A DNA stretch of 64,000 nt from an uncultured Clostridia bacterium (GTDB lineage: Bacteria > Bacillota > Clostridia > TANB77 > CAG-508), in NCBI GenBank assembly GCA_944388755.1, contig CALXJY010000003.1, forward strand, positions 1,012 through 65,011. Reading direction: 5' to 3'. Position 1 is the first letter of the stretch. The number at the start of each line of letters is the position of its first letter. A program made the translations under genes and the position numbers. Below the pieces are notes generated by a model. It was not told the origin of the DNA, did no database searches, and was given only the letters and a program-made list of their open reading frames with translations. This document shows, piece after piece, positions 12,061 to 25,621 of the stretch.

Positions 12061-12097
12061 CTCTATTAGAAAAGTCAGTATAACTTTCCTAATAGAG
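12061..12097. repeat. 37-nt palindromic intergenic repeat, copy A
   Basis: ctctattagaaaagtcagtataactttcctaatagag. Same unit as copies at 18199, 21141, 24159, 25443 and 25585. Confidence 0.9.
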
Positions 12098-12102
12098 AAA
12101 TA

Positions 12103-12127
12103 AATAAGAGCCAAACCGGCTCTTATT
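12103..12127. terminator. hairpin at the 3' end of the typA-105aa-76aa transcription unit
   Basis: aataagagcc-aaacc-ggctcttatt. T/A-rich flanks on both sides. Overlaps the stop of 12123..12353. Confidence 0.55.
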
Positions 12128-12353
12128 TATTTTCAACTTTTCTAGACATCATACATATTGTATTATATCTGCATTCGGTACATTCTCCTTTGCACATAGG
12201 ACAGGTTAACCTAAGTGTGCAACTTAAACATTCTAGTTGGTGGCAGTATATATATGGACATACATCTATATCACAATTAATACAGCCTTTGTTTTCAGAA
12301 TCTAATATACACCTCCGTTGAATTTTAGAGGGCTTTTCTAAGTTTTTACCCAT
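12123..12353 (-). CDS. small cysteine-rich protein (12 Cys, four CxxC pairs)
   Basis: Strong RBS AGGAGG 7 nt upstream. CINC, CLSC, CPMC and CTEC suggest two Zn-ribbon or metal sites. Contains an in-frame CGG at codon 13. Confidence 0.6.
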   Translation of the reverse strand: MGKNLEKPSKIQRRCILDSENKGCINCDIDVCPYIYCHQLECLSCTLRLTCPMCKGECTECRYNTICMMSRKVENK

Positions 12354-12443
12354 AGATTTTCCTCCTAATAATTTTTTGATATTACATATTATATATTTAT
12401 TTTTTGGTTATGTCAATCTTTTTTAGGTAAAGATATTACTAAC

Positions 12444-12761
12444 CTATCTGTCTTTTTGATTTCGTTGTTCTATTTTTTCTTTTTTTCTAATAAATCCTTT
12501 TGCTACATTTGTTACACATTGCCTTATATCTAAATTATTTTTAAACCAATAGTCAAATTTTTGTATTATGTCATCTTGCATAATTAAGTCTATAGCATCA
12601 TTAAAACTATGCCCTTTTTCAATATATTCTATAACCTTTTTTCCAATATATTTTCTATTCTCTGTGTCTTCATTGTTTTTTGCTTTTTCTTTTGCTTTCT
12701 CTTTTTGGTAACAATATTCTGCAGCATATGAAATTTCTATTCCTGATATTCTTTTTCCCAT
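12444..12761 (-). CDS. hypothetical protein (105 aa)
   Basis: RBS GGAGGGG upstream. Starts 17 nt after the typA stop, so it is probably co-transcribed with typA. Confidence 0.55.
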   Translation of the reverse strand: MGKRISGIEISYAAEYCYQKEKAKEKAKNNEDTENRKYIGKKVIEYIEKGHSFNDAIDLIMQDDIIQKFDYWFKNNLDIRQCVTNVAKGFIRKKEKIEQRNQKDR

Positions 12762-12777
12762 ATAACCCCTCCATTAT

Positions 12778-14592
12778 CTATTTATTTCTATTGGCTCTTT
12801 CTCTTTCTTTTGTATCTAGTATTTTCTTTCTTAGCCTAATTGATTTTGGAGTAACTTCTACTAGTTCATCATCTTGGATAAACTCTATTGCCTTTTCTAA
12901 AGACATTTGTATTGGTGGTACTAAGCGTAGTGCATCATCTGATCCTGATGCTCTTGTATTTGTTAAGTGTTTTTCTTTACATACATTTATGCTTAAATCT
13001 TCTCCTCTTGAATTTAGTCCTACTATCATTCCTTCATATACATCTACACCTGGTCCTATGAATAATTCTCCTTTATCTTGTGCATTATATAGTCCATATG
13101 TTACTGATTTTCCTGTTTCAAATGCTACTATTGTTCCTCTTACTCTTGATACAACATCTCCTTTATATGGTTCATAGCTGTCAAATATGTGGTTCATTGT
13201 TCCTTCACCTTTAGTGTCTGTTAAAAACTCTGTTCTATATCCTATTAATCCTCTTGCTGGTATTTTGAATTCTATTTTTGTATGACCTTCTTCAGCAGGC
13301 TCCATATTTACCATTTCAGCTTTTCTTTTTCCTAGTTTTTCAATGACATTTCCGACACAATCATCTGGTACATTTACAACTAATCTTTCAATTGGTTCAC
13401 ATTTTACACCATCAATTTCCTTAAATATTACCTTTGGTCTTGATACCAATAGTTCAAATCCTTCTCTTCTCATTGTTTCTATTAATACAGATAAATGTAA
13501 TTCCCCTCTTCCAGATACTTCAAATGAGTCTGGTGTTTCTGTTTCTTTAACTCGTAAACTTACATTTCTTTCTAATTCTTTAAATAATCTATCACGAATA
13601 TGACGAGATGTTATATATTGACCTTCTTTTCCTGCAAATGGTCCATTATTAACACTGAATGTCATTGATACAGTTGGTTCATCTATATCTACAAAAGGTA
13701 TTTTTTCTGGGTGATTTAAATCACATATTGTATCACCAATATTTATATTTGGTAATCCTGCTAATGCCACTATATCTCCAGCACTAACTTCTTCGACTTC
13801 TTGTCTTTTTAATCCTATATGTGTATATAATTTTGCAATTCTTCCTTGTGTTATTTTGTCTTCTTTTCCGCATATTGCAACTGGCATGTTTAATTTTATT
13901 GTTCCTCTTTCTATTCTTCCTATTGCAATTCTTCCTACATAGTCGTCATAATCTATATTTGATACTAGCATTTGTGTTGGACCTTCTATATCGCAATTTG
14001 GTGCTTGTATTGTATTTACAATTGTTTCAAATAAACATGTTAGGTCTTTTGCGTCATCTTCTAAATTCATTTTTGCTATTCCATTTTTTGCTGATGCATA
14101 TACAACAGGGAAGTCTAATTGTTCATCTGTTGCATCTAATTCAATAAATAATTCTATTACTTGATCTACAACTTTTTCAGGAGTTGCCCCAGGTCTATCT
14201 ATCTTGTTTATTACAACTATTGGCTTTAGCCCAAGTGCTAGTGATTTTTTTAATACTTCTCTTGTTTGTGGCATTGCCCCTTCAAATGCATCTACTAATA
14301 AAAGGACTCCATCAACTGTTTTTAAAACCCTTTCTACTTCTCCTCCAAAGTCCGCATGTCCAGGTGTATCTACAATATTTATTTTTATGTCTTTATACAT
14401 TACTGATGTATTTTTAGATAGTATTGTTATTCCTCTTTCCTTTTCCAAATCGTTTGAATCCATTACTCTTTCTTGTACTTGTTCATTTTCTCTAAATACA
14501 TGGCTTTGTTTAAGCATTGCATCTACTAATGTTGTTTTTCCGTGATCTACGTGTGCAATTATCGCAATATTTCTTATTTTTTGGTTGTTCAT
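12778..14592 (-). CDS. typA: translational GTPase TypA/BipA
   Basis: AHVDHGKTT, DTPGHADFGGEVER and NKIDRP motifs. 604 aa, full-length BipA architecture. Confidence 0.95.
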   Translation of the reverse strand: MNNQKIRNIAIIAHVDHGKTTLVDAMLKQSHVFRENEQVQERVMDSNDLEKERGITILSKNTSVMYKDIKINIVDTPGHADFGGEVERVLKTVDGVLLLVDAFEGAMPQTREVLKKSLALGLKPIVVINKIDRPGATPEKVVDQVIELFIELDATDEQLDFPVVYASAKNGIAKMNLEDDAKDLTCLFETIVNTIQAPNCDIEGPTQMLVSNIDYDDYVGRIAIGRIERGTIKLNMPVAICGKEDKITQGRIAKLYTHIGLKRQEVEEVSAGDIVALAGLPNINIGDTICDLNHPEKIPFVDIDEPTVSMTFSVNNGPFAGKEGQYITSRHIRDRLFKELERNVSLRVKETETPDSFEVSGRGELHLSVLIETMRREGFELLVSRPKVIFKEIDGVKCEPIERLVVNVPDDCVGNVIEKLGKRKAEMVNMEPAEEGHTKIEFKIPARGLIGYRTEFLTDTKGEGTMNHIFDSYEPYKGDVVSRVRGTIVAFETGKSVTYGLYNAQDKGELFIGPGVDVYEGMIVGLNSRGEDLSINVCKEKHLTNTRASGSDDALRLVPPIQMSLEKAIEFIQDDELVEVTPKSIRLRKKILDTKERERANRNK

Positions 14593-24158: not shown

Positions 24159-24195
24159 ATCTATTAGAAAAATCAGCATGACTTTCCTAATAGAT
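24159..24195. repeat. 37-nt palindromic intergenic repeat, copy D
   Basis: atctattagaaaaatcagcatgactttcctaatagat. Lies between the cohesin-like gene and the sortase gene. Confidence 0.9.
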
Positions 24196-24243
24196 AATTA
24201 AATGGGACATGATTTTAAATTTTTGCATGTCCCTAAATTTTAT

Positions 24244-25284
24244 CTATTTCTTTTTCTTTATAATTATAAAAATTGTTGCTAATAATATAATTGTAGCTAT
24301 AATTGGTATATATATATTTATGCCTGTTTTTGGTAATACAGTTGGCATATTTGTATTTTCGTCTTTTGCTTCATTTACAGTTTCATTTATTATTTCATTT
24401 TGTTCAGGTGTTGTATTTTCTGTGTCTTCAGGCTGTGTATTTTCTTCTGATATTGTAAAATTAAATGTCTTTTCAGCTATTACACTATCTGAGTTATCTC
24501 TATCTATTAATTTTAGTGTTATTGTATAATCTCCTGTTTTACTAAATATTCCTCTTAAATTTAATACTTGTAATACATCTTTTCCACCTATTTTATATCC
24601 TTGGGCATCTCCCCATCCATTTTGTATAATGTCATGTTCTAAATTGTTTTCATCTTTACCTATTAGATTTACTGTTCCATCTGATGGAGTTGTTGCTGAA
24701 GCAATTAATCTTGCATGTTCATAATAACGTCCCATTGGTGATGAATATGATAGTTTCATATCATTTTCTTTACCTTGTATTAAATTTTCTGTTGGTTCTA
24801 AATTTAAAGTATAATCCACATATTGTGGCTCTACTGTTATGTTTTTTACTATTGGAGATGTTATATCATCATAGGTTACTGATGCATCTTCATTTGATAA
24901 TCCTTCAGCTGTTACCGTTATTTCTGTTGGATTTGATGTTGTTATATCATCTTTTGCTTTAAAAATTATACTCATATTTTCTCTTGGGTTTGTTCCTCCT
25001 GTTGAATCATAATAAGTTACTTTTACTTTATCTGATAAGTCATTTGCTGTTCCTCCTTCTGCTGATACATAACTAAATATTTTGTTATCATATGCAAAGT
25101 CAAATGTATATGCTCCTAGTTTTTTTCCAAATTCTACTGTTACTTTTACTTCTTCTCCTTGTTTTACAGTTGTTTTATCTGTATTTATTTGTATTGTATC
25201 AAGTGAGTCTGCAAATACTTTTCCTGTAAAAATTGTCATTAAAAGTAATGTCATTATTGTAATAATAGTAATTGTTTTCTTCAT
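24244..25284 (-). CDS. LPXTG-anchored surface protein with N-terminal cohesin-like domain
   Basis: Signal peptide. Cohesin-like segment IQINTDKTTVKQGEEVKVTVEFGKKLGAYTFDFAYDNKIFSYVSAEGG. C-terminal sorting signal LPKTG followed by a hydrophobic stretch and KKKK. Confidence 0.75.
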   Translation of the reverse strand: MKKTITIITIMTLLLMTIFTGKVFADSLDTIQINTDKTTVKQGEEVKVTVEFGKKLGAYTFDFAYDNKIFSYVSAEGGTANDLSDKVKVTYYDSTGGTNPRENMSIIFKAKDDITTSNPTEITVTAEGLSNEDASVTYDDITSPIVKNITVEPQYVDYTLNLEPTENLIQGKENDMKLSYSSPMGRYYEHARLIASATTPSDGTVNLIGKDENNLEHDIIQNGWGDAQGYKIGGKDVLQVLNLRGIFSKTGDYTITLKLIDRDNSDSVIAEKTFNFTISEENTQPEDTENTTPEQNEIINETVNEAKDENTNMPTVLPKTGINIYIPIIATIILLATIFIIIKKKK

Positions 25285-25442
25285 TGTTATTCCTTTCCGA
25301 AGGCTTTTTGAAATGTTTTATTCCTTCTTTTTTTAAATTTTCTATATTTTTATTATGTGTTTTTTTATGATTTTTATTTTTTTAATTTTTGTATTTTTTT
25401 ACATTTTTTTCAAATTATAATAATTTGTGTGCAATGTGTTTT

Positions 25443-25475
25443 ATCTATTAGAAAAGTCAGCATGACTTTACTAAG
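25443..25475. repeat. palindromic repeat, copy E (right arm truncated where the hairpin module begins)
   Basis: atctattagaaaagtcagcatgactttactaag, running straight into gaacaaatcggaaag. Confidence 0.8.
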
Positions 25476-25580
25476 AACAAATCGGAAAGCCTTAAAATTT
25501 GCAATAATTTATCTTTTCTCTTTGGCTTTCCGTTAATTTGTTCTGCGCCAAATTTATGTAATAAATTTGTGTGCAACGTG
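25475..25580 (-). repeat. composite hairpin repeat, copy 2 (inverted relative to copy 1)
   Basis: gaacaaatcggaaagcc...ggctttccgttaatttgttc followed by tgcgccaaatttatgtaataaatttgtgtgcaa. Reverse complement of 21035..21141. Confidence 0.85.
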
Positions 25581-25584
25581 TTTT

Positions 25585-25621
25585 ATCTATTAGAAAAGTC
25601 AGTATGACTTTCCTAATAGAT
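25585..25621. repeat. 37-nt palindromic intergenic repeat, copy F
   Basis: atctattagaaaagtcagtatgactttcctaatagat. Confidence 0.9.

Follow-up and report, generated by a model that had tools for sequence, protein, structure and literature searches.

The hairpins of REP, ERIC and Correia elements block 3′ exonucleases or are cut by RNase III, BIMEs have gyrase- or IHF-type partner proteins, and BOX elements are not known to have a dedicated transposase. REP sequences have a conserved tag at one of their ends, GTAG or CGTC, that is unpaired (PMC3733652). The BOX elements of Streptococcus pneumoniae, together with RUP and SPRITE, are characterized in PMC10969869 (citing Croucher 2011) as modular, intergenic and of stable secondary structure. 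For the Bacillus cereus group, PMC6542083 gives bcr elements of 100–400 bp, with 11–130 copies of bcr1 depending on the strain; the same account, citing Okstad 2004 and Kristoffersen 2011, links the mobility of bcr1 to a T-rich TTTAT motif and names no known transposase.

Here we analysed a stretch of 64,000 nucleotides (the window) from the genome of an uncultured Clostridia bacterium of the order TANB77 (genome G000, 1.5 Mb). This uncultured gut lineage also has an unusual CGG recoding. We conclude that a set of intergenic palindromes in the window is probably one module, termed B, of a non-coding, non-autonomous, modular and mobile repeat of 146–153 nt that belongs to one TANB77 genus.

A composite repeat of three hairpins

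The initial annotation had listed six copies of a 37-nt palindrome in the window, and all six are found where it placed them, with none expected by chance. A window search for the 35-nt core (≤3 mismatches) returned copies at 12062, 18200, 21142, 24160 and 25586, compared with an expectation of 0 from 100 shuffles, and a truncated copy at 25444 was recovered by a 13-nt arm search and a genome search. Six of six are intergenic, as annotated, and their neighbours agree with the description: tmRNA, clpX, and sortase, cohesin-like and dockerin/cadherin-like genes. The palindromes are less regular than first described: their arms had been called perfect, but are fully complementary only in the 21142 copy, most B copies having one A·C mismatch on the + strand (a G·U pair on the − strand) and the 18200 copy having two inner mismatches. 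The proposed arms of 15–17 bp extend to stems of 19–20 bp when the feet, TTT(A/C)T...A(T/G)AAA, are included, and the loop, given as 3–7 nt, is 3 nt. Palindrome B is 33–43 nt in size and folds at −20 to −23 kcal/mol in the window (z −6.6 to −9.6), the 18200 copy being weaker (−12.8 kcal/mol, z −5.3).

The 37-nt palindrome, taken at first as the unit, is the terminal hairpin of a non-coding composite of 146–153 nt that consists of a long hairpin A, a hairpin C and palindrome B. The features of the window are as follows.

12058..12100, + strand: solo palindrome B; upstream terminator hairpin −16.4 kcal/mol
18196..18238, + strand: solo palindrome B with linker tail, the most degenerate copy
19613–19964: tmRNA
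21039..21142, − strand: partial unit, A–C; 88% identity over unit positions 1–104
21139..21180, strand not assigned: palindrome B with perfectly complementary arms
24156..24198, + strand: solo palindrome B with a 12-nt linker tail
25418..25477, + strand: hairpin C tail and truncated palindrome B (25444–25477)
25474..25624, + strand: full unit, reading A–C–B; 97% identity to the genome consensus over 152 nt
Within 25474..25624, + strand: hairpin A, arms GAACAAATCGGAAAGCC..GGCTTTCCGTTAATTTGTTC
Within 25474..25624, + strand: hairpin C, arms CAAATTTAT..ATAAATTTG
25582–25624, + strand: terminal palindrome B of the full unit
25626..25655, − strand: clpX intrinsic terminator, AAACAGCTTAATGGCTGTTT and T-tract; upstream hairpin −14.9 kcal/mol
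25639–26967: clpX
30505..30513: empty site; a sister genome has a 122-bp A–C insertion exactly here (L063:3110-3233 versus C3:31516-31524)
58392..58458, + strand: isolated hairpin A module; 85% identity over unit positions 7–74

As DNA, the full unit folds into three hairpins at −35.3 kcal/mol (z −9.0). Immediately before it, the right arm of the truncated palindrome is fused to its hairpin A, and the two segments form a two-unit array; such head-to-tail arrays of whole units have a period of 146 nt. On the gene strand, the T-tract of the clpX terminator leads directly into palindrome B. The 24156..24198 copy has the terminator-like hairpin of the cohesin-like gene (24206–24240) on one side and the sortase gene's ribosome-binding site on the other, and the 18196..18238 copy lies between another terminator-like hairpin (18243–18293) and the promoter-like site of a transglutaminase gene (TAGACA-17-TATAAT). 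At 12058..12100, the palindrome directly follows the terminator of a 76-amino-acid open reading frame (12098–12132) and is upstream of the promoter-like site of a TPR gene. The partial unit at 21039..21142 is downstream of a + strand M14 peptidase fragment, and its TTCT end is abutted on the right by the palindrome at 21139..21180.

Conservation of the hairpins

All three hairpins are preserved by compensatory changes. Base pairing was retained in 97.9% of cells, compared with 92.7% in shuffles, and 11 pairs were changed on both sides; the observed values were reached in 0 of 500 shuffles, and slid controls were only 35–46% paired. Hairpin C folds better on the A–C–B strand in 47 of 47 units and has a conserved G·U pair there, whereas for hairpins B and A folding is slightly more favourable on the opposite strand. 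On the gene strand, B folds at −23.2 rather than −19.2 kcal/mol, as the mismatch is a G·U pair on that strand. An attempt to assign a functional strand from the asymmetry of G·U and A·C was dropped, as the modules contradict one another.

Distribution within and among genomes

Restriction to the window, which the initial annotation had named as refuting its reading, is not the case: the genome-wide count that it proposed gave 45 copies of B at ≤3 mismatches (0 for a reversed control pattern), and 45–47 by all counts. Whole and partial units occupy 102 loci (clusters), some of them head-to-tail arrays, and amount to 10.1 kb or 0.67% of the genome. Eleven of the 102 clusters are at contig ends. 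The repeat is of practical concern for assembly, with about 100 loci in G000 and several contig breaks in metagenome-assembled genomes (MAGs) of a widespread, never-cultured gut order.

The repeat family is confined to one genus of TANB77 and is patchy within it. Palindrome B is present in 21 of 338 genus genomes, with high counts only in G000 (46) and in G178 (47), followed by 11 and 7; sister species have anywhere from 0 to about 50 copies. Hairpin A was detected in 10 of the 36 genus genomes sampled and in 0 of 24 genomes from other families, and about 20 MAG assemblies contain it. The variant of B is specific to each species and homogeneous within it, and the loop of hairpin A differs between species; the GGAAAG/CTTTCC core is invariant across species in both A and B. 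Truncated modules are frequent, and tandem arrays are present. At the gathering score, Rfam 15 matched only the tmRNA in the window, and a permissive Rfam search around the unit gave a best E-value of 0.89.

Gene context and terminators

By gene context, 52 clusters lie between tandem genes, 28 between convergent genes and 6 between divergent genes (p = 1.4e-5); divergent promoter regions are avoided. Copies are tied to the 3′ ends of genes and tend to share the orientation of the upstream gene: the asymmetry of B is co-oriented with genes in 18 cases versus 2, and A–C modules in 30 versus 10. GC skew in the window tracks gene strand, so replication and transcription are inseparable as causes of this bias.

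Most copies occupy a precise position. Of 31 B copies, 22 (71%) directly follow a terminator, defined as a hairpin of −8 kcal/mol or stronger with a T-tract, compared with 7% of random intergenic windows (p = 5e-13), and the consensus of the upstream flank of B is TTTT(A/C)T. The palindromes had been annotated as lacking a T-tract and so as not being classical terminators; they indeed have none of their own, but it had been overlooked that true intrinsic terminators lie directly on their 5′ side. Selection could contribute to this pattern, and the location bias could be increased by neutral tolerance of insertions behind terminators. Downstream start codons are 15 to more than 300 nt away, with no fixed relation to the promoter, and a few copies occupy very short spacers, among them C38:9095 and 24160, the latter with 8 nt between its end and a ribosome-binding site.

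Insertion polymorphism and element ends

Presence/absence polymorphism between strains, suggested in the initial annotation as a test, is seen in clean cases against a sister genome with flanks that are 91–99% identical, and modules are gained and lost as well. One clean event is a 146-bp insertion (L021 versus C17:6752), and others were found. Of 22 loci in G178, G000 shares 10, has a different module make-up at 6 and lacks the other 6. Because copies are polymorphic between near-identical genomes, they provide a ready marker for strain typing.

Most units (29 of 35) have AGAA as their A-end 4-mer. At the B end, the outer 4-mer pairs perfectly with the inner 4-mer in 26 of 35 units (TT(A/C)T with A(T/G)AA). 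We found no regular target duplication, as the outside 4-mers match at 4/4 positions in only 10 of the 35 units, mostly inside arrays, and no terminal inverted repeats: the ends are different hairpins that have only a subterminal T(C/A)GGAAAG word in common. Junctions are ambiguous by 4–5 nt, and the two informative empty sites (L007/C14 and L063/window 30505) suggest different boundary models; the outer word at the B end may belong to the host or to the element.

Search for a mobilizing enzyme

None of the transposase models tried found a mobilizing enzyme in the element-rich genomes. Profile searches detected no Y1_Tnp (PF01797), TnpB, IS91 Y2 or rve in G000, and no Y1_Tnp, TnpB, IS91 Y2 or IS110 in G178; both genomes are MAGs, in which absence is weak evidence. 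PF01797 (RAYT/Y1) is also absent from G009 and G013. G178 has one rve locus with no similarity to the element, and a sub-threshold, stop-ridden remnant of DDE_Tnp_1. Several candidates were rejected. In G000 the element does not flank the single DDE_Tnp_1 gene or the single IS110 gene, and the flanks of Y1 genes in the relatives G241, G151, G092, G362 and G363 have no similarity to it; across transposase loci, such similarity is limited to one 27-nt match (E = 3.5e-4) beside the IS91 gene of G013. Pairs of A arms 0.25–5 kb apart, considered as a parent element, enclose only ordinary genes and no transposase, and large indels relative to the sister genome hold an ABC transporter and a 413-amino-acid gene of unknown function, again with no transposase. 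Multi-copy gene families of G000, AAA-ATPase/PD-(D/E)XK-like by eye, are not consistently adjacent to elements.

A candidate mechanism of spread

The repeat may spread by orientation-specific insertion beside TT(A/C)T, a short T-rich target. Read on the gene strand, the unit itself would end in TTCT, the same word as the target, and the exact head-to-tail arrays could be explained in this way. Pairing could occur between the 4 nt outside B and the 4 nt inside, and likewise between TTCT and AGAA at the foot of A; hairpins A and B have the GGAAAG/CTTTCC core in common. By analogy with IS200/IS605 or REP–RAYT, this layout of ends suggests a trans-acting enzyme that recognizes folded single-stranded DNA, and we infer mobilization as single-stranded hairpins. 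Solo palindromes and A–C pieces would then be decay products, formed by deletion across hairpins or between the common GGAAAG words. It is conceivable, if rather doubtful, that the repeat is a terminator-seeking single-strand DNA element, the 3′ end of which copies the target word, and that its enzyme falls outside the transposase models tried.

The repeat offers a clean example of an element located exactly behind terminators with no recognizable transposase. If the single-strand, guide-pairing model is true, it would point to an unrecognized mobilizing activity. On the doubtful reading above, this would be either a new class of hairpin-recognizing mobilization enzyme or a replication or repair function of the host that is hijacked at terminator hairpins.

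Alternative explanations

A cis-acting role in RNA, in which hairpins co-transcribed in 3′ untranslated regions or operon spacers are selected to block 3′ exonucleases or to be cut by RNase III, is unlikely. The stems are kept by covariation, copies are co-oriented with genes, B is stronger on the gene strand (G·U instead of a mismatch) and the copies in very short spacers must be transcribed. However, the 71% of copies behind a canonical terminator are past the normal transcript end, which weakens the reading of the palindromes as mRNA stabilizers, and the conserved G·U pair of hairpin C is on the opposite strand, so that no single RNA strand is favoured. Truncated modules are common, and a copy number of 0 to about 50 in sister species, with polymorphism in near-identical genomes, is a poor fit to a required function.

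It is quite improbable that the palindrome is a site at which a protein dimer binds duplex DNA, be it a global regulator, a nucleoid protein or a partner of the gyrase or IHF type. Dyad symmetry, the invariant core in A and B across species and the location of copies between terminators and the next promoter would all suit such a site; the variable distance to start codons (15 to more than 300 nt), the lack of any fixed relation to promoters and the 28 clusters in the promoter-free spacers of convergent genes do not. Moreover, G·U intermediates and compensatory stem changes point to single-strand pairing, and the palindrome is tied to 110 nt more of conserved sequence and occurs in tandem arrays.

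We consider it very improbable that the units are multi-copy small RNA genes, each independently transcribed. A unit of about 150 nt with three conserved, covarying hairpins would be in keeping with this, as would the better folding of hairpin C on the strand antisense to flanking genes, but promoter-like sites over copies show no excess (108 versus 100 in shuffles), the loop of hairpin A is not constant across species, many copies are truncated or in tandem arrays, there is no Rfam family match and, because B has no T-tract, the unit lacks its own terminator. That the palindromes themselves are transcription terminators is extremely unlikely: they are strong hairpins downstream of genes, and one of the six window copies (21140–21178, + strand) passes a lenient terminator scan, but a T-tract 3′ of B is absent on both strands, where the stem runs into an A-rich foot with the T-rich foot 5′ of it, and separate canonical terminators lie ahead of most copies. 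Annotation should not count these hairpins among terminators, operators or small RNA genes.

Comparison with known repeats

The palindromes had initially been likened to REP/BOX-type elements; this broad class holds, and 'miniature mobile element' is the best of the three options then offered (beside mRNA stabilizers and protein-binding sites), but they are not REP proper, having neither the GTAG/CGTC tag nor a RAYT. The TANB77 repeat resembles REP/BIME sequences in its 33–43-nt high-copy extragenic palindromes, which lie on the 3′ sides of genes in unidirectional or convergent spacers and have species-specific variants (PMC3733652), and B is a high-copy imperfect extragenic palindrome in the sense of the 20–40-bp REP definition. 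In contrast to REP/BIME, no GTAG/CGTC occurs in the consensus, the feet TT(A/C)T and A(T/G)AA pair with each other, arrays run head to tail rather than alternating, and G000 and G178 have no RAYT gene.

IS200/IS605-family elements and their transposase-less derivatives are similar in having a hairpin at each end, no terminal inverted repeats, no evident target-site duplication and a strong strand bias; like them, the TANB77 repeat may insert beside a 4-nt word that pairs with an internal word at a hairpin foot (PMC3201880, PMC5027513). Its cleavage sites are putative, however, and the element-rich genomes have no TnpA (Y1 HUH) or TnpB. As in MITEs, the units are small, AT-rich, non-coding, intergenic and structured, with bursts of copy number in some lineages, but without terminal inverted repeats, target duplication or a parent insertion sequence with matching ends. 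Variable module make-up, clustering and insertion next to one another recall BOX as outlined in PMC10969869, whereas the modules and sequence differ, it is whole units that are multiplied and not a single internal box, and the elements have a fixed position with respect to terminators. Compared by description only (PMC6542083), bcr1 is alike in its occurrence in Firmicutes, its size range, its restriction to one clade, its variable copy number and its T-rich motif, comparable to the T-rich flank of B, and in having no known transposase; the TANB77 repeat differs in targeting terminator T-tracts without regular duplication of the motif and in having three separable hairpin modules. Our best reading is that it is a new example of the REP/BOX/bcr1/MITE kind of repeat, a familiar form of selfish bacterial DNA.

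Palindrome B in the window and in the genome

A 35-nt core matches at window positions 12062, 18200, 21142, 24160 and 25586, with 1–3 mismatches each (none in 100 shuffles), and a shortened copy lies at 25444. Including their feet, the stems of the window palindromes are 19–20 bp long around a 3-nt loop. Their RNA folding energies lie between −20 and −23 kcal/mol, with z between −6.6 and −9.6, except for the degenerate copy at 18200, which reaches only −12.8 kcal/mol. The initial annotation described these as near-identical 37-nt perfect palindromes: they are near-identical, but most carry one A·C mismatch on the + strand and are thus not perfect. 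All six are intergenic, as the annotation had it, and their neighbours are tmRNA, clpX, a sortase, a cohesin-like protein, a dockerin/cadherin-like protein, an M14 peptidase fragment, a transglutaminase and a TPR protein. Confinement of the motif to the window, which the annotation had named as grounds for refutation, does not apply, as the whole host assembly (G000; 1.52 Mb, 64 contigs, 26.5% GC) contains 45–47 palindromes, compared with none for a reversed control pattern.

A composite A-C-B unit

The flanks of the palindromes are conserved on one side only, and palindrome B belongs, with hairpin A and hairpin C, to a larger unit that is 146–153 nt long when full. CGG/CCG words occur in hairpin A of the unit consensus (AAATCGGAAAGCC / GGCTTTCCG), which probably has no bearing, since the unit does not code for protein.

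Modules of the unit and window examples
Hairpin A: GAACAAAT-CGGAAAGCC, loop of ~33 nt, then GGCTTTCCG-TTA-ATTTGTTC
Hairpin C: TGCGC-CAAATTTAT..ATAAATTTG-T-GTGC
Palindrome B: feet TTTT(A/C)T...A(T/G)AAAA
Window 25474-25624: full unit
Window 21039-21142, − strand: A-C piece
Window 58392-58458: lone hairpin A

The host genome holds whole units, A-C and C-B pieces and solo B copies, as well as exact head-to-tail arrays with a period of 146 nt (for example, on contigs C28 (1-490), C50 and C10, and at window 25418-25624). Merged clusters number 102 and take up 10.1 kb (0.67% of the genome); for 11 of them a contig end is no more than 150 bp away, which indicates that the repeat breaks the assembly.

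The hairpin structure of the unit is under constraint. About 15 assemblies supplied the 47 distinct units of an alignment in which standard pairs make up 97.9% of pair cells (92.7% in shuffles) and 11 pairs are altered on both sides (7.0 in shuffles; 104 versus 25 cells). None of 500 shuffles reached any observed measure, and sliding the partner columns lowered pairing to 35–46%. Six covarying pairs come from hairpin C and five from the outer stem of palindrome B; hairpin A is almost invariant, partly because the units were retrieved with its right arm. The A-C-B strand carries a conserved G·U pair in hairpin C and is the better-folding strand for this hairpin in all 47 units; for palindrome B and hairpin A, folding is slightly better on the other strand.

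Position behind terminators

Clusters occupy 52 tandem, 28 convergent and 6 divergent spacers (P = 1.4 × 10−5); divergent spacers contain more DNA than convergent ones, yet rarely hold a cluster. The asymmetry of palindrome B is co-oriented with the flanking genes in 18 cases versus 2, and the A-C part in 30 versus 10. Along the strand of the upstream gene, the stop codon is followed by the terminator hairpin, the T-tract, B, C, A and then the next promoter. Among the 31 B copies that have no other unit before them, 22 have a hairpin at least as stable as −8 kcal/mol in the 42 nt directly upstream, compared with 7% of random intergenic windows (P = 5 × 10−13). The consensus of this stretch is rich in T, with TT(A/C)T as its last bases. 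Within the window, four of the six copies (12062, 18200, 24160 and 25586) show this terminator-then-B pattern, and the remaining two come after another unit's TTCT end.

The palindromes lack a T-tract of their own and are therefore not terminators themselves, which bears out the annotation's view of them as other than classical terminators and adds that they directly adjoin true ones. Because they lie directly 3′ of terminators, most copies are beyond the normal transcript end. Readings of the repeat as an element acting at the RNA level, a protein operator or an sRNA are, like the terminator reading, each less likely.

Turnover against the sister genome

We compared the host with its sister genome, the public MAG BRZ_EP_bin125 (G178), the flanks of which are 91–99% identical to those of the host. 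At the 22 sister element loci with both flanks mapped in the host, 10 are the same, 6 have an altered module make-up and 6 are missing in the host.

Filled and empty sites (C, host contigs; L, sequences from other assemblies)
146-bp unit: filled at L021:2304-2449, empty at C17:6752
122-bp A-C piece: filled in L063, empty at window 30505
Unit: filled at C14:22737-22879 (host), empty in L007
Solo B in L003, A-B-C-A cluster at C11:25224-25584: flanks identical

On C14, a 413-aa gene of unknown function (17208-18446), visibly less AT-rich than its surroundings and followed directly by a terminator and a copy of palindrome B, is missing from the orthologous site of the sister genome, which measures 114 bp, compared with ~1.36 kb in the host.

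Unit ends and a possible mode of transposition

In a set of 35 full units, hairpin A is preceded by the 4-mer AGAA in 29; B is followed by ATAA in 18 and AGAA in 10, and this outer 4-mer shows perfect pairing with the inner foot in 26. Both outer 4-mers are identical at all four positions in only 10, so there is no regular target duplication, and terminal inverted repeats were likewise not found in these units. Read along the gene strand, a unit runs TT(A/C)T | B - A(T/G)AA ... AGAA - A - TTCT |, with a hairpin with a GGAAAG core at each end and, adjoining each end, a word that pairs with a hairpin-foot word.

We infer from this arrangement that the layout may be that of IS200/IS605-type single-strand transposition, in which cleavage sites are recognized through guide sequences situated at the base of subterminal hairpins (PMC3201880) and insertion at the replication fork is skewed towards a single strand (PMC5027513); the layout likewise resembles that of REP–RAYT systems (PMC3733652). 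Excision of a unit would be expected to leave a circle junction in which ..GATTTGTTCT is joined to CTATTAGG... The unit's own end would be a copy of the flank word, such that the end of one copy becomes the target for the next, which would account for the exact head-to-tail arrays. At the empty sites the insertion boundary is ambiguous by 4–5 nt: the L007/C14 site fits a host TTCT moved to the far end of the unit, and the L063/window 30505 site fits a unit that brings its own end word.

Search for a partner enzyme

Y1 transposases (PF01797) are absent from G000, G178 and the related genomes G009 and G013, and TnpB, IS91 and rve from G000, although absence from draft MAGs (98% and 92% complete) is no proof. 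Some other element-bearing genomes encode a Y1 transposase, with no element similarity in the flanks that were retrieved. In one of them (G241), the gene is a 259-aa ORF immediately preceded by a 424-aa ORF, the sequence of which, judged by eye, resembles the replicative helicase DnaB.

The single DDE and IS110 genes of the host were rejected as partners, having no relation to the element. Its only IS110-family transposase gene (C26:1413-2674, − strand) is split into two overlapping frames, is missing from the sister genome and lies right beside a sequence that looks tRNA-like by eye. Multi-copy genes with 85–92% mutual identity (C24:188-1850, C42:650-2312, C64:24-1409 and C9:1-1226, with pieces in C5, C20 and C37) look like members of the AAA-ATPase plus PD-(D/E)XK nuclease family; in some, the coding sequence is divided between two frames, and we found no consistent link between them and the repeat. 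In the window, two long − strand ORFs (21193-22386 and 22337-23512) that share 50 nt but use different frames may together represent a single split surface-protein gene.

Distribution among relatives

A scan of the genus (338 species genomes, at most 2 mismatches) located palindrome B in 21, with large counts only in G000 (46) and G178 (47); the next are 11 and 7. Hairpin A is more widely spread: the 36 genus genomes sampled include 10 that carry it (with highest counts of 52, 28 and 18), and 24 genomes representing four further families of the order all lack it. An exact scan found it in ~20 MAG assemblies, the isolate names of which suggest varied gut sources. An exact 20-nt match to its right arm in a MAG labelled Prevotella (CAMOVK010000004.1), in higher-GC surroundings and with the rest of the unit missing, is most likely due to chance.

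The A-C-B architecture is constant between species and palindrome B is species-specific, with variants that include CTATTAG..CTAATAG, ATATTAG..CTAATAT, ACAATAGGAAAG..CTTTCCTATTGT and CAAATAGGAAAG..CTTTCCTATTTG around an invariant core, (A/G)GAAAG..CTTTCC, which is also the inner stem of hairpin A.

A second repeat family in the host (~140 nt, roughly 9 loci), often beside A-C-B units, has its own palindrome, TTGTATAGGAAAAATC..GATTTT(G/T)..CTATACAA. Its GC-rich hairpins resemble the B variant and extra hairpin of other species of the genus and, given this likeness, two subfamilies may coexist in the host.

Loci of the second family
C11:25371-25600
C6:49029-49166
C6:757-845
C12:25770-25888
C12:31386-31549
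C16:6079-6160
C11:4026-4101
C3:66514-66629, just past the right end of the window

Comparison with known repeats

The unit has no match in Rfam, and we found no mention of the repeat in the literature on TANB77. The family lacks the terminal inverted repeats, target duplication and parent insertion sequence that define MITEs, and the tag and RAYT that define REP proper. In its behaviour it resembles the classic small structured intergenic repeats, of which the closest known are bcr1, BOX and REP (PMC3733652). Compared by description only, bcr1 from the B. cereus group (PMC6542083) and the A-C-B family have in common TTTAT-linked mobility or a T-rich flank, clade restriction, a comparable size range and the lack of a known transposase. 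BOX (PMC10969869) is modular, as is the A-C-B family. Unusual features of the family are its exact docking behind terminators and an apparent lack of any recognizable transposase.
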